From an uncultured Eubacteriales bacterium (lineage in GTDB: Bacteria > Bacillota > Clostridia > UBA1212 > CASDQQ01): a DNA stretch of 46,043 nucleotides. Of this stretch, positions 33,300 through 45,899 are shown one piece after another. Where the stretch lies: NCBI GenBank assembly GCA_949282945.1, contig CASDQQ010000047.1:1-46043 (forward strand), read 5' to 3'. Below the pieces are notes generated by a model. It did not search any database. It was not told the DNA's origin and saw only the letters and a list, made by a program, of their open reading frames with translations. The translations under genes were made by a program, and so were the position numbers. The number at the start of each line of letters is the position of its first letter. The stretch's first letter is position 1.

Positions 33300-33547
33300 A
33301 AAGATCGATATCAGCCTTCAATAGGGCGAGTGCTGTAGCTCGCGGTGCCACCTATTTTTTTTCTCATTTTCTGACTTTATATAAAGTCTGCCGATTAACG
33401 CTCGGCCCTACGGCGCACCTACTAAAGAATAACCTTTTTCAGATTGCAGCTCGTCAGGTGTTCTTCATGCCGGTTGTTTTATGCGGCTCTCACTGTTCCG
33501 CATTCGCTGTAAAGGAGTTTTGGCATTACTTCTCCCGACTCAAACGC
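33300..33547 (-). promoter_or_regulatory. T-box leader (tRNA-sensing riboswitch), probable Asn (AAC) specifier, controlling asnB
   Basis: On the - strand the T-box sequence AGGTGGCACCGCG lies at 33353-33341. The antiterminator is AATAGG[TGGCACC]GCGAG-loop-CTCGCCCTATT. Stem I carries AGTA and GAA S-turn elements, an AGTGA box and AAC (33462-33460) followed by A next to the lower helix. Stem III is GACTTTAT/ATAAAGTC. Confidence 0.8.
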
Positions 33548-33567
33548 TTTTATGATATTTGTTTTTA

Positions 33568-35295
33568 TTATTCCACATCCTGTAAGGCGGCGTAGCCTTC
33601 CTCGCCGGTACGTACCTTAACTACATTTTCAACATCATAAACAAATATTTTGCCGTCTCCGATATGTCCCGTATAAAGAACCTTCTTAGCCGTTTCGATT
33701 ACATCCCGCACAGGTATTTTGCTTACTACTATATCGACCTGTACTTTTGGCAGCAGATTTGTTTCTACAGGAACTCCACGATAATATTCCGGTTTACCCT
33801 TTTGCGTGCCGTAGCCCATAACGTGCGATACCGTCATACCTGTAATTCCAAGTTTATTCATAGCATTTTTGAGGGCGTAAAGCTTATCTTCCTTAAATAC
33901 TATCTCAACCTTGGTAAATTTATGTTCCCCGCTGTCAAAGGACGGAACTTTCTTTACGACTACCGCTTCAGCGGCCGGAATATCGCCGGTAACGACGGAT
34001 ATTTGATCTTCACCAGAATAGTCTGCGTATTTTTCCACTACCGGTTCAAAATCAGGATAAGCACTGGGCAATCCGTGTTCTGCTATGTCAAGTCCGGTAA
34101 GTTCATCCTCAGCTGAAGCCCGAAGTCCATGGGTCTTTTTTATGATAGCAAAGGTAATTGTCAGCAGGATCACTGCATAAAGGCCTACTGATAAGATACC
34201 AAGAGCCTGTATTCCCAAAAGCTTAAAGGAACCTGTGTAAAAAAGTCCGGAAAGTCCGGCGGGAGCGTCAGGATTTGCAAGCAGCCCTACAGCTAAAGTT
34301 CCCCAAAGCCCGTTTGCCATATGAACTCCCACTGCGCCTACCGGGTCGTCAATGTGCAATTTGATATCAAGCAGCTCAACTACAACTACGATAAGTATAC
34401 CTGAAACTATTCCTACCACAGTAGCTCCTATAGCGTCCATAGCGTTGCATCCTGCGGTAATACCTACAAGCCCCGCTAAAGAAGCGTTTAGGCACATTGA
34501 AACATCAGGCTTACCGTTTTTTAGCCATGTAAATATCATAGTAGTACAGGTAGCGACTGCAGGAGCGATGGTCGTAGTAAGGAATATAGATGCAAGCTCA
34601 GAGGCGCTAGTCGCGGCGGCACCGTTAAAACCGTACCAACCAAGCCAGAGAATAAATACTCCAAGGGCTCCAAGAGTTATGGAATGGCCGGGGATAGCGT
34701 TAACCTTTATTACCTTGCCAGAAGGATCTCTGACGTATTTACCGATACGCGGACCTAAGAATATAGCTCCTACTAAAGCCGCGATTCCGCCTACCAGATG
34801 GATGGCGCAGGATCCTGCAAAATCGTAAAAACCAAGCTGAGACAGCCAGCCTCCGCCCCATATCCAGTGAGCCTCAATTGGATATATTACCAGTGAGATA
34901 ACGGCGGAATAAATGCAGTAAGCTGAAAACTTAGTACGTTCAGCCATGGCCCCCGAAACAATGGTAGCGGCTGTGGCACAGAAAATTAAGTTGAACACAA
35001 AAGTTGACGCACCTGTAAAACCTCCGTCTGAAGGGCTTGATATAAATTCCTTGAAGTTTGCCCATAAGTCCATGTTTGGAAGCCCCACCAGACCGAAAAG
35101 AACATCCTCTCCCATCATCAATGTATATCCGAGCAGTGAAAAAACTACTGTTCCTATACAAAAATCCATCAGGTTTTTCATGATTATGTTTCCGGCATTT
35201 TTGGCTCTTGTAAATCCGGCTTCTACCATTGCAAATCCGGCCTGCATCCAAAATACCAACGCGGTTCCTATCAAAAACCAAAATTCAATAGTCAT
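33568..35295 (-). CDS. amt: Ammonium transporter (Amt) fused at its C-terminus to a P-II (GlnB/GlnK) signal-transduction domain
   Basis: 575 aa. Amt blocks FWMQAGFAMVEAG and DFAGSCAIHLVGG. After a linker of about 60 aa comes a complete P-II domain: KVEIVFKEDKL...GITGMTVSHVMGYGTQKGKPEYYRG...GDGKIFV. Confidence 0.85.
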   Translation of the reverse strand: MTIEFWFLIGTALVFWMQAGFAMVEAGFTRAKNAGNIIMKNLMDFCIGTVVFSLLGYTLMMGEDVLFGLVGLPNMDLWANFKEFISSPSDGGFTGASTFVFNLIFCATAATIVSGAMAERTKFSAYCIYSAVISLVIYPIEAHWIWGGGWLSQLGFYDFAGSCAIHLVGGIAALVGAIFLGPRIGKYVRDPSGKVIKVNAIPGHSITLGALGVFILWLGWYGFNGAAATSASELASIFLTTTIAPAVATCTTMIFTWLKNGKPDVSMCLNASLAGLVGITAGCNAMDAIGATVVGIVSGILIVVVVELLDIKLHIDDPVGAVGVHMANGLWGTLAVGLLANPDAPAGLSGLFYTGSFKLLGIQALGILSVGLYAVILLTITFAIIKKTHGLRASAEDELTGLDIAEHGLPSAYPDFEPVVEKYADYSGEDQISVVTGDIPAAEAVVVKKVPSFDSGEHKFTKVEIVFKEDKLYALKNAMNKLGITGMTVSHVMGYGTQKGKPEYYRGVPVETNLLPKVQVDIVVSKIPVRDVIETAKKVLYTGHIGDGKIFVYDVENVVKVRTGEEGYAALQDVE

Positions 35296-35310
35296 ATTTA
35301 CTCATCTCCT

Positions 35311-37407
35311 TTATTTTACGCCGAACAACAGCTGTCCGTATGTAGGGAAAGGCCAATATTTTTCTGCCGTAAGCGTTTCTGCCTCGTCGCAGAAAGAACG
35401 CAGCAACTCCATTTTGCCAAGTATTATATCTCGGATCATATTTGCTGACTCTGTAACATCGGTGATCAATTTTAACTTAACAAGCTCCTGTTCCAGTTCA
35501 TCTGTGGCTGAGTCAATTTTATCAACTAAATAGGAAAGCCTGTTAATAAGCTTCGTTTCATAACTGCATTGAAGCTGAGGATCTATTGCTTTTTTTGCTC
35601 CGGCGGCCCCGGCCAGATCAGCTGTATATGATTCAATTGCCGGCAGTATTTCCTTTCTTGCCATATCTACCATAGTAAGGCCTTCAATATTAACGGTTTT
35701 GCAGTAATTCTCCATCATGATCTCATAACGGGATTTGATTTCGGCCTCTGAAAATACCTTATGAGCCGTAAGCATATCGATATTCTTCTTATCAAATATT
35801 GCGGGCATGCAGTCCGGCGTAGTCTTTAAATTAAGAAGGCCTCTTTTTTCAGTGGCTTCTTTGATCCAGGAATCATCATAGCCGTTTCCGTTGAATATAA
35901 TCCGCTTATGATCTTTTATGGTCTTTTTGATCATCTCATGTAAAGATGTCTCAAAATCCGACGCGTTTTCAAGTCTGTCGGCGTATATTTTAAGCGACTG
36001 AGCAACCGCTGAGTTTAGCATGATATTGGCGCATGCTATACTGTTGGAAGAGCCGAGCATACGAAATTCAAACTTGTTTCCGGTAAAAGCAAATGGAGAA
36101 GTACGGTTACGGTCGGTAGTGTCCCGGGTAAATCTCGGTAAAACGTGAACGCCGAGCTTCATTTGCGTTTTTTCTGTCCCGTTGTACGGAGTATCGTTTT
36201 CTATGGCATCCAGTACGGCTGTCAATTCGTCGCCCAAAAATATGGAAACCACTGCGGGAGGGGCTTCGTTAGCTCCAAGTCTGTGATCGTTTCCGGCGGT
36301 CGCCACAGAAAGACGGAGCAGATCCTGATAATCGTCTACGGCTTTGATCACCGCACACAGGAACAATAAAAACTGCGCGTTCTCGTAAGGCGTTTCTCCG
36401 GGGGTCAGCAGATTAACTCCGGTGTCGGTAGCGAGCGACCAGTTATTATGTTTTCCTGAACCATTAACACCCGCAAAAGGCTTTTCGTGCAGTAGACATA
36501 CAAGGCCGTGTTTAGCGGCTACCTTTTGCATGATCTCCATAGTCAGCTGATTGTGATCCGTAGCTATATTAGTGGTTGTATATATTGGAGCAAGTTCATG
36601 CTGAGCGGGAGCCACTTCGTTATGTTCGGTTTTAGCCAAAACTCCCAATTTCCAGAGCTCTTCATTTAAATCGGCCATGTAAGCAGCTACGCGAGGCTTG
36701 ATAACACCGAAATAATGATCGTCCATCTCCTGACCTTTCGGGGGTTTTGCTCCAAACAGAGTTCTGCCGGTAAAGATCAGATCCTTGCGCTTGTCAAACA
36801 TTTCTTTGTCCACAAGGAAATATTCCTGTTCAGGTCCAACTGATGTACGAACACATTTTACACTATCATTCCCAAATAACCGCAGAATGCGCAGCGCCTG
36901 TTTATTAAGAGCTTCCATGGAACGGAGCAGCGGAGTTTTTTTGTCCAAAGCTTCTCCTCCGTAAGAACAGAAAGCCGTAGGAATGCAAAGAGTTTTTCCC
37001 TTTATAAAAGCGTAGGAGGTAGGGTCCCAGGCCGTATAGCCTCTGGCCTCAAATGTGGCACGAAGACCTCCGGAAGGGAAGGAAGAAGCGTCCGGTTCGC
37101 CTTTTATAAGCTCCTTGCCTGAAAATTCCATAATAACTCTGCCGTCGGGAGCGGGGGATATAAAGCTGTCATGCTTTTCCGCGGTAATGCCGGTGAGAGG
37201 TTGGAACCAGTGAGTAAAGTGAGTCGCGCCGTGACTGATCGCCCAATCCTTCATGGCTGTGGCTACCGCGTTGGCAACATTATTATCAAAACGCGCTCCC
37301 TCGTCTATGGTTTTCTTGAGCGATTGATAAACGTCCGCCGAAAGTGTAGCCTTCATTACTCTGTCGTCAAATACAAGGCTTCCAAAATAATCAGATACTG
37401 TGTTCAT
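35311..37407 (-). CDS. glnN: Glutamine synthetase type III
   Basis: 698 aa. The GSIII size class and N-terminal domain fit. Catalytic-region block [23 protein letters not shown]. Confidence 0.85.
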
Positions 37408-37434
37408 AGTTCTTCTCTCCTTTACAGTAAATAT

Positions 37435-37492
37435 AAAAAACCAGGCAATGACAGCTTAAGAAACAGCTTCTCAAGACTCCATTGCCTGGTTT
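37435..37492 (-). terminator. Leader (attenuator-type) intrinsic terminator between the glnN promoter and the glnN start codon
   Basis: On the - strand AACCAGGCAATG pairs with CATTGCCTGGTT (12 bp), extended by CTTGAGAA/TTCTTAAG, then TTTTTT. It lies 27 nt upstream of the ATG. Confidence 0.7.
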
Positions 37493-37560
37493 ATAGATAA
37501 TAGAAAGAACGTCTCGAAGATTTACCTTCAAGACGCCCTTGCCTTTCTTTTATGGTCGTT

Positions 37561-37588
37561 ATTATACACGCCTCAAAAAGTTTGTCAA
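37561..37588 (-). promoter_or_regulatory. Consensus sigma-A promoter of the glnN / amt-PII operon
   Basis: On the - strand TTGACA (37588-37583), 16-nt spacer, TATAAT (37566-37561). Confidence 0.7.
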
Positions 37589-37705
37589 TAGATTTTTTAA
37601 TTTTTTTTGAAGAATTTTTGAACGGCAAGTCCGCGTAGAAATGAAAAAATAAATTTTATTTTTACGGCATTTGTTTTTATTTTCACAAATTAGCATATAT
37701 TACAG

Positions 37706-37734
37706 TTGACAAATCAAAATTATTATGGTATACC
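37706..37734 (+). promoter_or_regulatory. Sigma-A promoter (extended -10) of the split glutamate synthase operon
   Basis: TTGACA (37706-37711), 17-nt spacer ending in TGg, then TATACC (37729-37734). Confidence 0.6.
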
Positions 37735-37745
37735 CTGTTCAATGA

Positions 37746-37805
37746 GCAAAGGCGTTCGTTCAGGTTGGAGTGGTTTCTCCTCCTGGATGGGCGCCTTTGC
37801 TTTTT
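37746..37805 (+). terminator. Leader (attenuator-type) intrinsic terminator upstream of the glutamate synthase operon
   Basis: GCAAAGGCG (37746-37754) pairs with CGCCTTTGC (37792-37800), enclosing CAGG..GGAG-loop-CTCC.CCTG, followed by TTTTT (37801-37805). It lies 29 nt upstream of the ATG. Confidence 0.7.
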
Positions 37806-37834
37806 ACAAAAATATTAAGAAAGGACAGAATACC

Positions 37835-38926
37835 ATGAAATTAGAAGGTCAAGTAAGAATTCCATCCGGATGCGCTATTTCCGCTGTTATTTCAAAAGAC
37901 GGAAACAAAATGACCGGGGAAAAGATCATAGACAGCATGATACCCATGCATGATCGCTCCAACGGTTTAGGAGGCGGATTTGCAGGTTATGGTATATATC
38001 CGGAGTACCGGGAGTTTTATGCTTTTCATATTTTCTATAACGACAATGCGGCGCGCAGCGAATGTGAAAATTTTTTAAAGGATGGATTTGAAATTGTCAA
38101 GGCAGAAAATATACCTATAAGGAAAATACCGGAGATTACGGACGTTCCCTTGATATGGCGGTATTTTGTCGCTCCGCTAGCCTCGGTCCTCTCCAGGCTA
38201 CAGTTAGATGAAAAGGAATATGTAGCCAGAATGGTAATGAAGATCAATACCGGGATAAAGGGAGCATATGTGTTTTCAAGCGGGAAAAATATGGGAGTAT
38301 TCAAGGCTGTAGGCTTCCCTGAGGACGTGGGCAGATTTTATAGATTAGAGGAATACGAGGCATATTCATGGACGTCTCACGGAAGATACCCCACAAACAC
38401 TCCGGGTTGGTGGGGAGGCGCTCACCCTTTTGCTCTGCTTGATTATTCCATAGTGCATAACGGGGAGATTTCTTCCTATGACGCAAATCGCAGATTTATT
38501 GAAATGTTCGGCTATAAATGTACACTCCAGACGGATACGGAGGTAATAACGTATATTGCTGACTATCTTTTACGCAGGCAAAAGCTGACTTTAAGTGAGA
38601 TGGCTTCGGTTATCGCGGCGCCGTTCTGGAGTACGATAGACGGAAAGGATCCCAAAAGTAAACAGCAGCTTACATATTTAAGGAGCGTATATTCAAGCTT
38701 GCTCGTAACCGGGCCCTTTTCAATTATTTTAGGTTTTGAGGGAGGAATCATGGCGCTGAACGACCGGCTGAAGCTCAGATCCATGGTGACGGCCGAAAAG
38801 GGCGACAGAGTGTTTATAGCCAGTGAAGAAGCGGCTATACGTGTTATGGAGCCGGACGCGGAGAATATTTATGCGCCCGCGGGCGGGGAAGCAGTTATTG
38901 TAAAAGTAAAGGAGGGGGCTTACTGA
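37835..38926 (+). CDS. Glutamate synthase, class II (Ntn) glutamine amidotransferase subunit (archaeal-type split GltB domain 1)
   Basis: ATG 37835 is chosen over the track TTG 37706, which would put the promoter and terminator inside the CDS. N-terminus is MKLEGQVRIPSGCAI, with the nucleophile Cys after a short propeptide. HNGEISSY block. Confidence 0.75.
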   Translation: MKLEGQVRIPSGCAISAVISKDGNKMTGEKIIDSMIPMHDRSNGLGGGFAGYGIYPEYREFYAFHIFYNDNAARSECENFLKDGFEIVKAENIPIRKIPEITDVPLIWRYFVAPLASVLSRLQLDEKEYVARMVMKINTGIKGAYVFSSGKNMGVFKAVGFPEDVGRFYRLEEYEAYSWTSHGRYPTNTPGWWGGAHPFALLDYSIVHNGEISSYDANRRFIEMFGYKCTLQTDTEVITYIADYLLRRQKLTLSEMASVIAAPFWSTIDGKDPKSKQQLTYLRSVYSSLLVTGPFSIILGFEGGIMALNDRLKLRSMVTAEKGDRVFIASEEAAIRVMEPDAENIYAPAGGEAVIVKVKEGAY

Positions 38927-40431
38927 TGTCGGTACAATATATATATCCGGAATTTGAAGTAATAAGAAATCCAGGCAGATGTATCGCCTGCCGCGTTTGC
39001 GAACGCCAGTGCGCCAACGAAGTGCATTCTTACGATGAGGACAGCAAAACGATGCTGAGCGACGAGTCTAAGTGCGTAGACTGTCAGCGCTGCGTAGCAC
39101 TTTGTCCAACGAGGGCTCTTAAAATAGTAAAAAACGACTGCGCGTTCCGGGAAAACGCGAACTGGCGCGGGGATACGATAAAAGAGATATATAAGCAGGC
39201 AGAAAGCGGAGGAGTTCTGCTTTCTTCCATGGGAAATCCCAATCCGCTTCCTGTATACTGGGATAAGATATTGATCAATGCGTCCCAGGTAACCAATCCT
39301 CCGATAGACCCGCTCCGCGAACCTATGGAAACCAGAGTGTTTCTGGGGAAAAAGCCTTCGGCAGTGGCACGAAATGAAGACGGAAGCTTAAAATGTCAGT
39401 TGTCTCCTCAGTTGGATCTTACAATGCCTGTCATGTTTTCTGCGATGAGTTATGGATCTATCAGCTATAACGCTCACGAAAGTCTGGCCAGGGCGGCGGA
39501 GAAACTTGGTATTTATTACAATACGGGAGAGGGCGGTCTGCACGAGGATTTTTACCGCTACGGGGAAAACACCATAGTCCAGGTGGCCTCCGGGCGGTTC
39601 GGAGTACACGAAGATTACTTAAACGCAGGAGCCGCTATAGAAATAAAAATGGGACAGGGTGCAAAGCCTGGAATAGGCGGACATTTGCCAGGAACAAAAA
39701 TTGTCGGAGACGTATCCAGGACCAGAATGATCCCGGAGGGTTCGGATGCTATATCTCCCGCGCCTCATCATGATATTTATTCTATTGAGGATTTAAGGCA
39801 GCTAGTATATTCTTTAAAAGAAGCTACGGAGTATAAAAAGCCTGTTATCGTAAAGGTCGCGGCGGTACATAATATTGCGGCGATAGCCAGCGGTATTGCC
39901 CGGAGCGGGGCGGACATTATCGCAATAGATGGATTTCGCGGAGGTACCGGAGCCGCGCCTACGAGAATACGCGATAATGTGGGCATTCCTATTGAGCTTG
40001 CTTTGGCCTCTGTAGATCAGCGGCTTCGCGACGAAGGTATCAGAAACAATGTTTCCCTTGTAGTGGGCGGCAGCATTCGCAGTTCGGCTGATGTGGTAAA
40101 AGCGATCGCATTGGGAGCGGACGCATGTTACATTGCTACTGCGGCGCTTATTGCTTTAGGATGTCATCTTTGCCGTACTTGTCAGACCGGAAAATGCAAC
40201 TGGGGAATCGCCACACAGCGTCCGGAACTTGTAAAACGCTTAAATCCCAGTATAGGCGGCGAACGCCTTGTTAACCTGATGACGGCATGGAAGCATGAAA
40301 TTAAAGAATTGATGGGCGGTATGGGCATCAACTCCATAGAAGCGCTTCGCGGGAACCGACTTATGCTGCGCGGCGTAAATCTGACAGAAAAGGAGCTTGA
40401 GATTCTCGGTATCTCACACGCAGGAGAATGA
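38926..40431 (+). CDS. Glutamate synthase FMN/Fe-S domain subunit with N-terminal 2x[4Fe-4S] ferredoxin module (GltB domain 2)
   Basis: TGATG overlap with the upstream gene. Cys motifs CIACRVCERQC and CVDCQRCVALCP. GOGAT FMN-domain block EIKMGQGAKPGIGGHLPG. Late cluster CHLCRTCQTGKC. Confidence 0.85.
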   Translation: MSVQYIYPEFEVIRNPGRCIACRVCERQCANEVHSYDEDSKTMLSDESKCVDCQRCVALCPTRALKIVKNDCAFRENANWRGDTIKEIYKQAESGGVLLSSMGNPNPLPVYWDKILINASQVTNPPIDPLREPMETRVFLGKKPSAVARNEDGSLKCQLSPQLDLTMPVMFSAMSYGSISYNAHESLARAAEKLGIYYNTGEGGLHEDFYRYGENTIVQVASGRFGVHEDYLNAGAAIEIKMGQGAKPGIGGHLPGTKIVGDVSRTRMIPEGSDAISPAPHHDIYSIEDLRQLVYSLKEATEYKKPVIVKVAAVHNIAAIASGIARSGADIIAIDGFRGGTGAAPTRIRDNVGIPIELALASVDQRLRDEGIRNNVSLVVGGSIRSSADVVKAIALGADACYIATAALIALGCHLCRTCQTGKCNWGIATQRPELVKRLNPSIGGERLVNLMTAWKHEIKELMGGMGINSIEALRGNRLMLRGVNLTEKELEILGISHAGE

Positions 40432-40856
40432 AGAGGATATTTGTGAATGAAAAATGGTGTATCGGATGTCACCTTTGTGAATATAATTGTGCTTTTGCTA
40501 ATTCAGGGATAAAAGATATGGTGAAAGCATTAAAAGGTAAAAATATTTATCCGAGGGTGCATGTTGAAGGAGACGATAAAATTACATATGCGGTATCCTG
40601 CCGCCATTGTACCGATCCTATATGTGTAAGAAGCTGTATTTCAGGGGCTTTATATATTAAAGACGGTACGGTATGCATTGACCATGATAAATGCGTGGGA
40701 TGCCTTACCTGCATTTTAGTTTGTCCTTATGGAGCCGTATCTCAGGACGAAAACGGAGCTGTCCAGAAATGTGAGCTGTGTCTTAAAAACTCTGCAGGCG
40801 CTCCGGCCTGCGCCCTGGGATGTCCTAACGGGGCAATAGTGTATGAGGAGAGGTGA
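40428..40856 (+). CDS. 4Fe-4S dicluster ferredoxin-like protein
   Basis: 142 aa with ATGA overlap. Cys motifs CIGCHLCEYNC, CRHCTDPICVRSC, CVGCLTCILVCP and CELC. Confidence 0.8.
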   Translation: MKRIFVNEKWCIGCHLCEYNCAFANSGIKDMVKALKGKNIYPRVHVEGDDKITYAVSCRHCTDPICVRSCISGALYIKDGTVCIDHDKCVGCLTCILVCPYGAVSQDENGAVQKCELCLKNSAGAPACALGCPNGAIVYEER

Positions 40857-40861
40857 CGGAA

Positions 40862-42109
40862 ATGAAGAATTATGTGATCATAGGTAACGGAACGGCGGCG
40901 GTAGGTTGTATTGAAGGTATTCGCAGTATTGACCGCGACGGGAAAATTACTGTCATATCCTCAGAAAGACATCCGGTCTATTGCAGACCGCTGATTTCCT
41001 ACTATCTGGAAGGAAAAACGGATATTGAGAGAATTAAATACCGGCCGGAAAATTTTTATATGGAAAATGGCTGCGAGGTGATATACGGCAAAAGCGCCGT
41101 AAAAATTGATAATGGGAAAAAAGTGATCCTACTTAACGATGAAAGTAAAATATTTTATGACGAACTTTGTATAGCGACGGGTTCAGATCCGTTTATCCCT
41201 GACTTTGACGGAATAGAGAGCGTTGGCGACAAATATTCCTTTATGACTCTTGACGACGCTTTGGCTATAGAAAAAGCGGTATCAAAAAATTCAAAAGTTT
41301 TGATTATAGGAGCCGGTCTTATAGGGCTTAAATGCGCCGAGGGCCTTAGGGACAGAGTAGAAAGCATAACGGTATGCGATTTGGCAGACAGAGTTTTATC
41401 CAGTATTCTTGACAGCGATTGCGCCCAAATTATGCAAAGACATTTAGAACGATGCGGAATATCTTTTATGCTCGGTGACAGCGCGGCGAAGTTCAGAGGC
41501 AATACCGCTTTGATGAAAAGCGGGAAACAGGTGGATTTTGATATTCTTGTTTTAGCGGTGGGAGTAAAAGCTAACATATCGCTTTTAAAAGATATAGGAG
41601 GCATGTGCGGTCGCGGTATTATAGTAGACGACCATATGAGGACGTCGGTCAGCGGTATTTACGCGGCGGGAGACTGTACAGAATGTACCGATATATCTTG
41701 CGGTGAAAGCAAGGTTATAGCTATCTTGCCCAATGCTTATATGCAGGGAAAATGCGCGGGAATTAATATGGCCGGAGCGCAGGAGGCATACGATAAAGCC
41801 ATACCTATGAATTCCATAGGGTTTTTCGGATTGCACGCTATGACAGCGGGAAGCTATTTTGGCCCGGAGCAAAATGGAGAAATATATGAAGAAAAGTCAG
41901 AAGATAAAATAAAGAGGCTTTTTACTAAAGACGGGTTGCTTACCGGATTTATACTGATTGGAAATACTGATAAAGCAGGTATTTATACTAATATGGTACG
42001 AAACAGGATACCGCTTTCTGAGGTGGATTACGAAAGGCTGAAGAAATCTCCGGATTTTGTGTCGTTCGGCGCAGAATACCGCAAAAAAAAGTTTGGGAGT
42101 GTGGTGTAA
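40862..42109 (+). CDS. FAD/NAD(P)-dependent pyridine nucleotide-disulfide family oxidoreductase
   Basis: ATG 40862 lies about 8 nt after GAGGAGAGG; the track GTG 40853 is an alternative. Dinucleotide folds VIIGNGTAAVG and LIIGAGLIGLKCAEG. AAGDC block. Confidence 0.8.
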   Translation: MKNYVIIGNGTAAVGCIEGIRSIDRDGKITVISSERHPVYCRPLISYYLEGKTDIERIKYRPENFYMENGCEVIYGKSAVKIDNGKKVILLNDESKIFYDELCIATGSDPFIPDFDGIESVGDKYSFMTLDDALAIEKAVSKNSKVLIIGAGLIGLKCAEGLRDRVESITVCDLADRVLSSILDSDCAQIMQRHLERCGISFMLGDSAAKFRGNTALMKSGKQVDFDILVLAVGVKANISLLKDIGGMCGRGIIVDDHMRTSVSGIYAAGDCTECTDISCGESKVIAILPNAYMQGKCAGINMAGAQEAYDKAIPMNSIGFFGLHAMTAGSYFGPEQNGEIYEEKSEDKIKRLFTKDGLLTGFILIGNTDKAGIYTNMVRNRIPLSEVDYERLKKSPDFVSFGAEYRKKKFGSVV

Positions 42110-42111
42110 TT

Positions 42112-42831
42112 ATGCTGATCAATGTAAAAGGACTAAGCTATGCAGACGTTAACGAAAGACTAAGGCAGATGACTGGTCCCTGTACTATTACAGGATGTAT
42201 GGGACAGCGTTTTATCGCGGCGGGAATGAGCGAAAAAGAGCTTACTATCGACGGAATTCCCGGGAATGCTCTGGGAGCTTATTTAAACGGGGCTAAAATT
42301 ATTGTAAAAGGCAATGCTCAGGACGCCGTGGGAGATACAATGAACGGAGGAAGTATCGTGGTTCACGGAAATATCGGAGATGCGGCGGGTTATGCTATGC
42401 GCGGCGGCGAAATATATGTAAGGGGAAATGCCGGATACCGCGCCGGGATACATATGAAAGCCTATAAAGAAAAAAAACCTGTTATGGTAATAGGAGGACG
42501 TACGGGCAGTTTTTTAGGGGAGTATCAGGCCGGCGGAATCATTATAGTTTTAGGCCTGCATACCGACGGAAAGCCTGTGGTGGGCAATTATCCCTGCACC
42601 GGAATGCACGGCGGAAAAATGTTTTTACGCGTATCCCCGGAAAATATCCGCTTCCCTAAACAGGTATCAGCGGTTATAGCTTCCGACGAGGATAAAGAGG
42701 AAATAAGAGCGTATGTCCAAAAATATTGCGAACTTTTTGGATATGATCCTGAGAGTTTGCTCAATGATACTTTTACTGTCATAACTCCGGACAGTAAAAA
42801 TCCGTATAAGCAAATGTATGTAGCAAATTAA
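42112..42831 (+). CDS. Glutamate synthase GXGXG-repeat subunit (GltB C-terminal domain 3)
   Basis: 239 aa. Repeated G-x-G-x-G beta-helix motifs: [48 protein letters not shown]. Confidence 0.85.
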
Positions 42832-42850
42832 GATTGGGAGGCGTGGACTA

Positions 42851-44458
42851 ATGACAAAATATATCTTTGTGACCGGAGGTGTTGTTTCCGGACTTGGCAA
42901 GGGAATTACAGCCGCTTCTTTGGGCCGGCTGCTGAAGGCAAGGGGCCTGAAAGTAGCGGCGCAGAAGTTTGATCCCTATATTAACGTAGATCCGGGCACG
43001 ATGAGTCCTTATCAGCATGGGGAAGTTTATGTTACAGAGGACGGCGCGGAAACTGATCTGGATCTGGGTCATTATGAAAGATTTATAGATGAAGATTTAA
43101 ATAAATATTCTAATCTTACCGCGGGCAAGGTATACTGGAATATTCTTAATAAGGAGCGCAGAGGAGAATATCTTGGGTCTACAGTACAGGTCATACCTCA
43201 TATTACCAATGAAATAAAGGATTTTGTATACCGCCTGGAAAGGCAGACAGGAGCGGACATAATCATTACGGAAATAGGAGGAACCATAGGGGATATTGAA
43301 TCCCAGCCGTTTCTTGAGGCCATAAGGCAAATATCCCTTGAAGCAGGAAGAGAGAACAGCCTTTTTATCCATGTGACATTAGTGCCGTTTTTGAGAGGTT
43401 CGGACGAACATAAGTCCAAGCCTACACAACATTCTGTAAAGGAACTTCAGGGAATGGGGATTAATCCCAATATTATCGTGCTGCGCTGTGACGAACCCTT
43501 AGAGGAATCTATTTTCAAAAAAATTTCTCTGTTTTGTAATGTCAAGCCAGATTGTGTAATTGAAAATATTACTCTTCCCAATCTTTATGAAGCTCCTCTT
43601 ATGTTAGAAAAATCAAATTTTTCAGCAGTTGTTTGCCGCGAACTTGGAATAAACGCTCCGGAACCTGAGCTTGAGGAATGGAAAAAAATGGTTGAGCGCA
43701 TTAAAAACAGGCCTTATGAAGTGCATATAGGACTGGTAGGAAAATATGTGCAGCTTCACGACGCGTATCTTTCTGTGGCTGAGGCGCTTAGACATGCCGG
43801 ATACGCGCTTAATACCCACATACGTATACATTGGATCGATTCAGAAATGCTGACGGAAAACACAAGGGAAGAAATCTTTTCAGGGTTAAACGGTATTATT
43901 GTTCCCGGGGGATTTGGAAACCGCGGGGTTGAAGGGATGATACTTGCCGCTGAATATGCAAGAGAGCATAGGCTTCCATACTTTGGCATATGCCTGGGCA
44001 TGCAGATAGCCGTTATAGAATTTTCCCGTCATGTGGCAGGCATTACGGACGCAAATTCAGGCGAATTTGACGAACTTTGCAAAAACAAGGTAATAGACTT
44101 TATGCCGGGACAAAGCGACGATATCGACAAGGGAGGAACTCTGCGTCTGGGAAGCTATCCGTGTAATGTTAAGGAAGGCACTGCAATGTATCGCTGCTAC
44201 GGAGAAAGCCTTATCCATGAAAGGCACCGCCATCGCTATGAATTTAATAACGATTACAGGAATGTTCTTGAAAAGAACGGTCTTATTTTATCAGGACTGT
44301 CCCCAAATGGGAAATTGATCGAAACAGTAGAACTTCCTGACCGGGATTTTTATTTGGGAGTTCAATACCATCCTGAATTTAAGAGCCGCCCCAATAAACC
44401 TCATCCTCTTTTTAAAGGATTTGTAGAAGCGGCTTTAAATTTAGCGCAAGGAGAGTAA
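42851..44458 (+). CDS. pyrG: CTP synthase (glutamine-hydrolysing)
   Basis: 535 aa. N-terminus [18 protein letters not shown]. GATase Cys block [15 protein letters not shown] block. GGGAGG RBS. Confidence 0.95.
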
Positions 44459-44462
44459 TTTT

Positions 44463-45899
44463 ATGGATAATCTGCATGAGGAATGCGGTGTTTTCGGCGT
44501 ATATTCACCAAAGGCCGGCAAAGTTGCCGATACTGTATATTATGGATTATACGCACTGCAGCACCGGGGGCAGGAGAGCTGCGGCATAGCAGTTTGCGAC
44601 GATGGGATATTCAGCTCTTACAAAGACATAGGCCTGGTAAGCGAGGTATTTACAAAGGAAATATTGGCAAGGCTGCCGTTGGGTTCAATGGCAGTGGGAC
44701 ATGTTCGTTACGGAACCACAGGAAAGACTAACCGGGCGAATTGCCAGCCTATCGAGGTCAATCATCAAAAGGGAAAAATGGCGCTGGCGCACAATGGAAA
44801 TTTAAGCAATGCCTATAGTCTGAGAAGCGAGCTTGAATTGTCCGGAGCGATATTCCATACCACGAGCGATACGGAGATCATTGCTTATATTGTTACAAGA
44901 GAGCGTTTGACTTCTCCTTCTATTGAAGGGGCTTTGATCAGAGCTATGGATAAACTGGATGGAGCGTACTCCTTAATAATGATGTCGGCCTCAAAGCTGA
45001 TAGCCGCAAGAGATCCTTATGGTTTCCGTCCTCTGTGCTATGGCAAGATGGCGGACGGGAGCTATGTGGCCGCTTCTGAAAGCTGCGCGTTGGCCGCGGT
45101 AGGCGCGGAATTTGAAAGGGACATTTTGCCTGGAGAGGTAGTTGTCTTTGATGAAAACGGAGTTCATTCCTACAGGGAACATTGCGGTAAATGCAAACCA
45201 AGCATATGTATTTTCGAATATATATATTTTGCCAGACCTGACTCGGCGATCAACGGAGTATCTGTCCATGAGGCCAGATTTAGAGCGGGAAAGCTTTTGG
45301 CTGAAAGGTACCCTGCGGACGCGGATGTGGTAATAGGAGTTCCCGACTCGGGCATTGACGCGGCGCTTGGCTATTCACAGGCTTCCGGCATTCCCTATGG
45401 ACTGGGGTTTATCAAAAATAAATATATAGGGAGAACCTTCATTTCCCCCAGTCAGGATGAGCGTACGGATAAGGTAAGGATAAAATTGAATCCAATTCGC
45501 GAAACAGTTGAAAATAAGCGCGTAATTTTAATTGACGATTCTATTGTTAGGGGCACCACTAGCGGGCAGATAGTAAATCTGCTGAGATACGCGGGGGCAA
45601 GGGAAGTACATATGAGGATATCGGCTCCGCCTTTTTTAAATCCATGTTATTATGGAACGGATATCGATTCCCGTGAAAATTTGATTGCCTGCAGCCATAC
45701 TGTAGAGGAGATTGCCGGAATAATCGGAGCGGACAGTTTAGGCTATCTGCCTTCTGAAGACCTGAAAAATTTGATAGGATGCGAAAACTTTTGTTCGGCT
45801 TGCTTTAGCGGGGAATATCCAACCAAGATTCCGGAAAATACGCAAAAAGACCGTTTTGAGGCAAAACTGTCGGAACGGAAAAAATATAAAAAACATTAA
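44463..45899 (+). CDS. purF: Amidophosphoribosyltransferase (glutamine PRPP amidotransferase)
   Basis: 478 aa. Propeptide MDNLHEE precedes the nucleophile Cys (CGVFGV). PRPP-binding loop VILIDDSIVRGTT. C-terminal Fe-S Cys residues. AAGGAGAG RBS. Confidence 0.95.
   Translation: MDNLHEECGVFGVYSPKAGKVADTVYYGLYALQHRGQESCGIAVCDDGIFSSYKDIGLVSEVFTKEILARLPLGSMAVGHVRYGTTGKTNRANCQPIEVNHQKGKMALAHNGNLSNAYSLRSELELSGAIFHTTSDTEIIAYIVTRERLTSPSIEGALIRAMDKLDGAYSLIMMSASKLIAARDPYGFRPLCYGKMADGSYVAASESCALAAVGAEFERDILPGEVVVFDENGVHSYREHCGKCKPSICIFEYIYFARPDSAINGVSVHEARFRAGKLLAERYPADADVVIGVPDSGIDAALGYSQASGIPYGLGFIKNKYIGRTFISPSQDERTDKVRIKLNPIRETVENKRVILIDDSIVRGTTSGQIVNLLRYAGAREVHMRISAPPFLNPCYYGTDIDSRENLIACSHTVEEIAGIIGADSLGYLPSEDLKNLIGCENFCSACFSGEYPTKIPENTQKDRFEAKLSERKKYKKH

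Follow-up and report, generated by a model that had tools for sequence, protein, structure and literature searches.

In the 46,043-nucleotide stretch of an uncultured Eubacteriales bacterium analysed here (contig CASDQQ010000047.1; hereafter the window), two nitrogen-assimilation operons diverge from a shared intergenic space at positions 37408-37834. The operon on the - strand starts with glnN, which encodes a type III glutamine synthetase (GS), and the one on the + strand starts with the genes of a split glutamate synthase (GOGAT). We consider it quite probable that the leaders of both operons are protein-dependent transcription attenuators of the ANTAR (NitR) type. The element at their heart, a short hairpin with a six-base loop set into the foot of a terminator, is best described as a single-hairpin variant that would work like an ANTAR target rather than as a canonical member of the class, since the dual-hairpin arrangement of that class was not found.

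The preliminary description of this stretch had pointed to a box common to both leaders. Both variants of this box are inverted repeats around six bases (AAGGC-AAAGGC-GUCUU and AUGAGC-AAAGGC-GUUCAU), and in the window they fold as mini-hairpins. Two of these lie 57 nucleotides (nt) apart in the glnN leader on the - strand, each with a terminator-like hairpin of its own. Unit 1 (37530..37545) reads AAGGC-AAGGGC-GUCUU and has 5 base pairs (bp), its loop at 37540-37535 and a predicted stability of -2.6 kcal/mol, whereas unit 2 (37474..37487) reads AGGC-AAUGGA-GUCU and has 4 bp, its loop at 37483-37478 and -2.3 kcal/mol. The GOGAT mini-hairpin (37741..37760, + strand; AAUGAGC-AAAGGC-GUUCGUU, 7 bp, loop 37748-37753, -4.8 kcal/mol) begins about at the predicted 5' end of its transcript. 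All three have A at loop position 1, G at position 4 and a C-G pair closing the loop. A covariance model of the single hairpin, R1, scores them at 25.4 bits (E=2.4e-4, the top match of the window), 20.2 bits (E=0.006) and 24.3 bits (E=4.8e-4), respectively; as the three sites are part of the R1 seed, these top ranks show only that nothing else in the window resembles them. A further R1 match at 41080-41105 (+; 16.7 bits, E=0.05) falls inside the Pyr_redox_2 gene, has the loop AAAAGC without G at position 4, and probably arose by chance. The recurrence of a GUCUUGA motif in the glnN leader, also noticed in the preliminary description, is there as described and finds its explanation in unit 2 (37487-37474) being a diverged copy of unit 1.

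Such hairpins are known from a class of protein-binding RNA. ANTAR targets were defined as mini-hairpins with a stem of at least 3 bp and a hexaloop carrying A1 and G4 (Ramesh et al. 2012); the pair at the top of the stem is conserved and belongs, with the loop, to what the protein recognises. A canonical target consists of two of them, P1 and P2, with P2 overlapping the 5' proximal stem of an intrinsic terminator and with a linker of 5-12 nt between the two in the eut leaders (2-25 nt in later curation). The three window sites have hexanucleotide loops (AAGGGC, AAUGGA and AAAGGC) on stems of 5, 4 and 7 bp, a C-G pair at the top of each, and the A1/G4 signature throughout; each overlaps the 5' stem of its terminator, the position that P2 takes. 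Compared by sequence, their loops and closing pair equal those of the published eut and nasF seed hairpins, among them eutG (GUGUAC-AAUGGC-GUAUAC), eutA (UUAAGC-AAAGGC-GCUUAA), eutP P2 (GGC-AAAGGA-GCC) and nasF P2 (GGAU-AAAGGC-GUCC). Unit 2 of glnN shares its loop type with eutP P2, and the GOGAT loop is identical to that of nasF P2. A C-G pair also closes most of the eut seeds and nasF P1, while nasF P2 has U-G. The preliminary description had set ANTAR aside because the hexaloops GUAAAU and UGGUUU lack A1 and G4. Those two loops cap the long hairpins, whereas the signature has to be read from the mini-hairpins of the box, so its statement that no known RNA class fits does not hold. Its proposal of a nitrogen-responsive attenuator is retained, and only the attribute of an undescribed class falls away, since the NitR/ANTAR type would account for it.

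Each mini-hairpin is embedded in a leader built for attenuation. The glnN promoter (37561..37588, -; TTGACA-16 nt-TATAAT) matches the consensus at 12/12 positions and holds the same position relative to the box in related leaders. On the other strand, the GOGAT promoter (37706..37734, +) reads TTGACA-17 nt-TG-n-TATACC, with an extended -10 element, and relatives have consensus promoters at the equivalent site. The glnN transcript contains hairpin 1 (37535-37510, -), which can be extended outwards; the resulting long hairpin of unit 1 (37495..37545, -; -21.7 kcal/mol) includes the unit 1 mini-hairpin in its 5' arm, is followed by the U-rich tail UCUAUUAUCU, and is predicted from its fold to act as a first, weaker terminator. 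In line with this, the first glnN-leader unit of relatives is likewise trailed by U-rich tails. The main glnN leader terminator (37435..37492, -; -30.2 kcal/mol) takes up the unit 2 mini-hairpin in its 5' arm, and its U6 tract (37440-37435) ends 27 nt before the glnN ATG. In the GOGAT leader, the terminator (37744..37805, +; -41.7 kcal/mol) includes the loop and the 3' half of the mini-hairpin in its 5' arm and ends in U5 (37801-37805), 29 nt before the GOGAT ATG. Both leaders fold far better than dinucleotide shuffles of themselves (z = -6.34 for glnN and -7.05 for GOGAT; in each case 0/200 shuffles were as good). A promoter and a leader terminator for each operon had been listed in the preliminary description, and all of these elements were confirmed. 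Its argument that a terminator between promoter and first codon implies conditional read-through is supported as well.

The arrangement of the two folds indicates how read-through could be decided. Each mini-hairpin occupies part of the 5' side of its terminator's foot, and in the predicted structures of every site only one of the two can form at a time. The mini-hairpins are weak (-2.6, -2.3 and -4.8 kcal/mol) next to the long hairpins that compete with them (-21.7, -30.2 and -41.7 kcal/mol), so a stabilising factor would be needed. On these modelled energies, a weak mini-hairpin facing a strong terminator is the relation expected of a protein-stabilised antiterminator.

These considerations lead to a model in which RNA polymerase would start at a strong sigma-A promoter and within the first ~20 nt produce the weak mini-hairpin, with its stem of 4-7 bp, C-G closing pair and hexaloop A-A-N-G-G-N. 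The loop and 3' half of this hairpin would at the same time provide the 5' foot of an intrinsic terminator of high stability. As long as no factor is bound, which would be the default, the terminator would win, and transcripts of the glnN leader would stop weakly near 37500 and strongly at 37435-37440 (-), those of the GOGAT leader at 37801-37805 (+). When nitrogen is limiting, an active NitR-like ANTAR protein would bind the nascent mini-hairpin, contacting A1, G4 and the closing pair while polymerase has yet to transcribe the 3' arm of the terminator. The bound protein would thereby sequester the 5' arm of the terminator and allow read-through into glnN-amtB and GOGAT-pyrG-purF. The two units in series in the glnN leader would then provide two checkpoints. 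From the behaviour of the family, we infer that this organism has an ANTAR protein and that it would bind these hairpins; which way the system would respond, and to what signal, is likewise modelled on the family.

We collected relatives by a GlnN protein scan, taking one genome per species, which yielded 80 loci at 63-82% identity, mostly from Oscillospiraceae, 'Ruminococcaceae' and metagenome-assembled genomes of other Clostridia. In their glnN leaders, the box has the consensus AAGGCAAWGGCGUCUU, makes up the 5' arm of a hairpin with a U-tract behind it, and often occurs in two copies; within these loci its exact core is almost confined to the sequence just upstream of glnN. The divergent GOGAT arrangement is common to fifteen related loci, and most GOGAT leaders carry the variant AUGARCAAAGGCGUUCAU, which as AUGARC-AAAGGC-GUUCAU is kept in 12/16 related GOGAT leaders. 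In related leaders, too, the hairpin lies within the 5' arm of the terminator, its start usually 8-14 nt downstream of the -10 box, while the upper helices and apical loops of the terminators are unconserved. Thus, the box that the preliminary description saw in both leaders is not a chance likeness but is kept in the leaders of many related loci.

Although the loop is constant, the stem that presents it is not. When the loci were scanned for AANGGN hexaloops closed by C-G on a stem of at least 4 bp, 113 sites came up, with diverse stems (AAGGC/GUCUU, AUGAGC/GUUCAU, CAGC/GCUG, CAUACAC/GUGUAUG, CGGC/GUCG, AAGC/GCUU and others). We aligned 81 related hairpins without gaps, having required the loop pattern and the inner four pairs at collection. 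A1, A2, G4 and the C-G closing pair are invariant across the 81, partly by this selection, whereas the stem positions exchange whole pairs: 7-20 is AU in 34, CG in 23 and GC in 17; 8-19 is AU in 38, GC in 33 and CG in 10; and 9-18 is GU in 31, AU in 27 and GC in 23. The covariation score of 0.626 compares with 0.252 after shuffling (0/500 shuffles reach 0.626) and with 0.10-0.18 in slid registers. Selection on the loop and the inner pairs biases the percentage paired and the loop invariance and leaves the diversity of pair types unbiased. Aligning related clostridial leaders and looking for covariation had been proposed in the preliminary description; the box is indeed kept, and its stems covary strongly. 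As a separate observation, the whole glnN leader hairpin of locus L005 (3927-3972) is a perfect 20-bp palindrome, so its ANTAR-type box is identical on both strands.

This pattern of conservation bears on what reads the element. If the leaders were small-molecule riboswitches that sense glutamine, 2-oxoglutarate or ammonium without a protein, one would likewise see strong leader terminators and a conserved element before nitrogen genes, and no match to a known family. Indeed, Rfam 15 has 0 families at gathering score over the whole window and nothing meaningful at E<=10 in 37300-37950: the T-box (RF00230) has no match in that interval even at E<=10, and the glutamine riboswitches (glnA RNA and Downstream-peptide) have none near gathering score, the matches in the region at E<=10 being at noise level. 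The preliminary description had found neither a T-box nor a glutamine riboswitch here, and the Rfam scan that it suggested agrees, as no family fits either leader. A bglG-cis-reg match in the region reaches 17.6 bits against a gathering score of 80 and is also noise. Yet only eight nucleotides, the loop and its closing pair, are conserved, on a stem of 4-7 bp and variable sequence, and the rest of each terminator is unconserved; so small a conserved core is not enough to build a ligand pocket. In addition, the motif equals a known protein-binding hairpin. We therefore give the riboswitch explanation almost no credence.

Covariation of the arms speaks in the same way to the idea that the box is a DNA operator, at which a transcription factor would act as repressor or roadblock just downstream of the promoters. 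The site does lie ~10-30 bp from the -10 element, and some loci (L005) have a hairpin that over its full length is a perfect palindrome at the DNA level. An operator would be expected to keep a fixed half-site, whereas here the flanking arms covary, the core AAWGGC lacks symmetry and keeps to the sense strand throughout, and second copies occur 45-180 nt downstream, far from the promoters and each tied to its own terminator. We regard an operator as very improbable.

The hairpin could also be ordinary and unregulated, a stabiliser of the mRNA 5' end or a leaky terminator, with the AAAGGCG box no more than the A-tract and GC-rich foot usual in a bidirectional terminator. Generic terminators in the loci do often start with AAAGGC, AAAGGA or AAAGAG. 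As a control free of selection, we took 213 terminators with A..G.. at their 5' base; only 22 have at least 4 upstream-arm pairs, and 22/22 of these adjoin nitrogen genes. Generic terminators lack the upstream complementary arm (0-3 pairs), as opposed to 4-9 pairs in the leaders of nitrogen genes. In a second control of this kind, the 631 CAANGGNG sites in 1.52 Mb divide into 113 with a stem of at least 4 bp and 518 without. Sense leaders of nitrogen genes occupy 5.1% of the sequence space and hold 78/113 of the stemmed sites as against 29/518 of the stemless ones. The hairpin is thus ~14-fold enriched in these leaders. Finally, a terminator of -30 to -42 kcal/mol with a U-tract, placed between a consensus promoter and the first codon, would silence essential assimilation genes if it was never bypassed, and on this evidence we hold unregulated hairpins to be extremely unlikely.

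Sorted by the gene downstream, the stemmed sites precede glnN (40), GOGAT (12), amtB-PII (12), type I glnA (4, that is 4/12 of the glnA(I) cases), asnB (3), asnA (3), pyrG (3) and guaA (1). Predicted ANTAR targets lie before glutamine synthetase, glutamate synthase, ammonium transporter and asparagine synthase genes in several Clostridia (Ramesh et al.). Counting the glnA(I)-nitR pair, the regulon of the hairpin equals the gene set reported for ANTAR targets of Firmicutes.

Two hairpins 45-180 nt apart occur before glnN in the window and in L001, L003, L004, L010, L011 and L054, before amtB in L015, L016, L020 and L022, and before both asnB and pyrG in L075. In the two-hairpin leaders examined, each hairpin heads a terminator-like hairpin and a U-rich tail of its own. 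As judged from their sequences, such leaders appear to be tandem attenuators rather than P1-P2 pairs.

Other devices that the box might have served were tried and rejected. A single-strand binding site or direct repeat (AAGGC-A-AAGGC) was dropped once the mini-hairpin had been recognised. An anti-Shine-Dalgarno or leader-peptide device fares no better, as the UUG-initiated open reading frame through the glnN leader is unconserved and the bases after GUCUU vary among relatives. Likeness to the tRNA-Gln anticodon arm falls in non-conserved positions. A three-hairpin attenuator, with the 3' arm of hairpin 1 pairing with box 2, is possible in the window and fails to explain the leaders with a single unit.

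Several results weigh against assigning the leaders to ANTAR. Among 31 hairpin-terminator units, the number with another A1/G4 hexaloop hairpin within ~26 nt is at chance level, 2 upstream and 3 downstream compared with 2.4 and 2.3 expected by shuffling; sought upstream, downstream and in the terminator apex, a second ANTAR hairpin appeared at chance level only. Where, as is usual in relatives, the hairpin starts 8-14 nt after the -10 box, there is no room for an upstream P1. We built a dual-hairpin covariance model, R2, from seven published eut seeds (Ramesh Fig. S1), leaving out nasF, whose P1 was misaligned by MAFFT. With R2, the window leaders reach just 11.7 bits (E=0.59) and 8.8 bits (E=2.8), no match across 713 kb of related loci has an E-value below 0.07, and every match covers a single one of the two hairpins. 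EutV, by comparison, needs both hairpins and their spacing. The caution about ANTAR in the preliminary description was thus sound as to the canonical two-hairpin model, which is indeed unmatched, and mistaken as to the single hairpin, which carries the ANTAR signature. That description had also proposed a scan for ANTAR regulators: the 46-kb window contains no ANTAR gene, and among the related loci one adjoins glnN in only 13/80.

The same hairpin might, then, be read by another factor, either a different RNA-binding protein, perhaps a partner of PII or GS, or a trans-acting small RNA with complementarity to the box. The missing ANTAR gene in the window, its adjacency to glnN in so few loci and a single-hairpin layout that departs from the known needs of dimeric ANTAR proteins would all suit such a factor. 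The loop sequence and closing pair of the hairpin are nevertheless identical to those of experimentally defined ANTAR hairpins, and in neighbourhood clustering the ANTAR gene is the sole regulator-like gene recurrently linked to glnN. A small RNA would in addition have to contend with a loop that stays fixed while the stems covary freely, a pattern that fits recognition of the loop by a protein and not pairing across the box. We think a non-ANTAR factor unlikely.

The ANTAR gene itself came to light in the clustering of open reading frames from the 80 loci, in which the most recurrent neighbours of glnN are a divergent pair, a type I glutamine synthetase and a protein of 193-207 amino acids. 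This NitR-like protein is encoded beside glnN in the 13 loci L005, L007, L009, L012, L013, L030, L035, L041, L043, L060, L062, L063 and L076, six of which have it in a glnA-nitR pair, often as the second gene of the pair; in some loci the ANTAR gene occurs alone, without a glnA partner. The glnN leader hairpin is present in 11/13 of these loci. By its gene content, the glnN-adjacent pair is the classical clostridial glnA-nitR arrangement. The L005 member (1861-2445) matches the Pfam ANTAR domain (PF03861, E=4e-15) and is homologous to the remaining 12; among the best 120 matches listed, homologues come only from close uncultured relatives. The protein resembles the receiver-ANTAR protein Rv1626 (1s8n, E=1.8e-7) and 6wsh. 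At the position of the phospho-acceptor aspartate (...VIMD... in Rv1626), most members have asparagine (...VIINAPL...). This aligned asparagine suggests that the N-terminal domain is a pseudo-receiver and unlikely to be driven by a kinase.

Reports that ANTAR/NitR regulators govern nitrogen assimilation in Firmicutes date back to 2007-2012, and the biology proposed here is otherwise as expected. A literature search on glnN leaders or antitermination in Clostridia and Ruminococcus returned no direct description. Among the closest counterparts is NitR of Clostridium saccharobutylicum, an ANTAR antiterminator reported to induce GS and GOGAT genes when nitrogen is limiting. In C. thermocellum, a REC-ANTAR gene lies within the GOGAT cluster. 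NitR control of glnA-nitR and gltAB in C. saccharobutylicum and C. acetobutylicum represents the same module, clostridial GS plus GOGAT antitermination, and relatives of the window carry the glnA-nitR pair beside glnN. The targets differ: in the window they are a type III GS with amtB-PII, and a split archaeal-type GOGAT with pyrG and purF.

The eut leaders bound by EutV in Enterococcus faecalis and Listeria present the same short stem, C-G closing pair and A1/G4 hexaloop (AAWGRC), with P2 overlapping the 5' base of the terminator. EutV depends on a pair of hairpins with 5-12 nt between them, and a linker of 3 or 14 nt abolishes induction. The leaders studied here have a single hairpin for each terminator, which frequently starts only a few nucleotides into the transcript. 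By contrast with EutV, which is driven by a kinase, the NitR-like proteins mostly have asparagine at the phospho-acceptor position and would be unlikely to respond in this way. NasR on nasF (Klebsiella oxytoca) and AmiR on amiE (Pseudomonas aeruginosa) exert ANTAR antitermination of nitrogen-related genes, as proposed here, and AmiR carries a pseudo-receiver, which the NitR-like proteins also seem to possess. They differ in their sensors, a NIT domain for NasR and the partner AmiC for AmiR, and both were described with dual-hairpin targets. A like logic, in which a single protein-stabilised hairpin overlaps the 5' arm of a terminator, governs the ribonucleic antiterminators of BglG, LicT and SacY; these are hairpins of ~29 nt with two internal loops, bound by a CAT-domain dimer, and share no sequence or structural likeness with the window hairpins.

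Since the receiver does not look capable of phosphorylation and its gene frequently shares a transcript with that of type I GS, we speculate that type I GS or a similar protein partner serves as the nitrogen sensor of the antiterminator. A broader generalization, which we put forward tentatively and judge somewhat improbable, is that the NitR-type ANTAR regulators of rumen and gut Clostridia act via a single hexaloop hairpin at the extreme 5' end of the transcript, that the two-hairpin clamp rule of EutV is not general, that whole hairpin-terminator units are duplicated in series instead, the glnN leader of the window being one example, and that GS rather than a kinase reports on nitrogen. If single-hairpin ANTAR sites are real, they bear on how ANTAR dimers recognise RNA and on the stoichiometry of binding.

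The finding amounts to a concrete, if predicted, regulatory assignment for GS III, AmtB-PII, GOGAT and pyrG/purF in an uncultured rumen/gut clostridial lineage. It extends the motif C-AAWGGN-G, on a stem of 4-7 bp at the foot of a terminator, to the leaders of glnN, GOGAT, amtB, asnB, asnA, pyrG and glnA in many Oscillospiraceae and related Clostridia. Since neither Rfam nor dual-hairpin ANTAR models detect them, single-hairpin sites, a layout common among the Clostridia of rumen and gut, are probably systematically unannotated.

The two operons that would be controlled in this way fill the right-hand part of the window and were assigned by Pfam. On the - strand, glnN (35311-37407, ATG at 37407) is followed after 15 nt by amtB-PII (33568-35295), and the two form a putatively regulated operon (33568..37407). 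The amtB-PII product, of 575 amino acids, joins an ammonium transporter and a C-terminal PII (GlnK-like) domain in one protein, apparently encoded on the same ANTAR-controlled transcript as glnN. On the + strand, the split GOGAT comprises five genes (GATase_2, Glu_synthase+Fer4, Fer4, Pyr_redox_2 and GXGXG; 37835-42831, ATG at 37835), succeeded by pyrG for CTP synthase (42851-44458) and a gene for a purF-like amidotransferase (44463-45899); with their short intergenic gaps, these make up a putatively regulated GOGAT-pyrG-purF-like operon (37835..45899). The pyrG and purF-like genes trail the GOGAT genes at gaps of 4-19 nt. Because these gaps are so short, the glutamine-consuming PyrG and PurF-like enzymes appear to be co-transcribed with the GOGAT genes and co-regulated by the GOGAT leader.

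Downstream of the purF-like gene, the four public contigs of this species that encode an identical PurF-like protein among the matches listed (L081-L084) all end 30-90 nt after the gene, and following them beyond the window brought no nitR gene to light. That four independent metagenome contigs end so near the end of the window (46043) suggests a repeat or other assembly-breaking element immediately downstream of it.

At the other end of the glnN operon, a T-box leader lies between amtB-PII and asnB (33319-33553, -), before asnB. It matches RF00230 with 82.8 bits (E=1.1e-18) and is absent from the default Rfam scan because this score is below the gathering score of 93. Its T-box sequence is AGGUGGCACCGCGAG, and its specifier loop reads ...AUGAAGAACACCUG..., in which the specifier is probably AAC (Asn), followed by A. 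To judge from this leader, asnB seems to be tRNA-controlled in this organism; in some relatives (L017 and L075), asnB carries an ANTAR-type hairpin instead.

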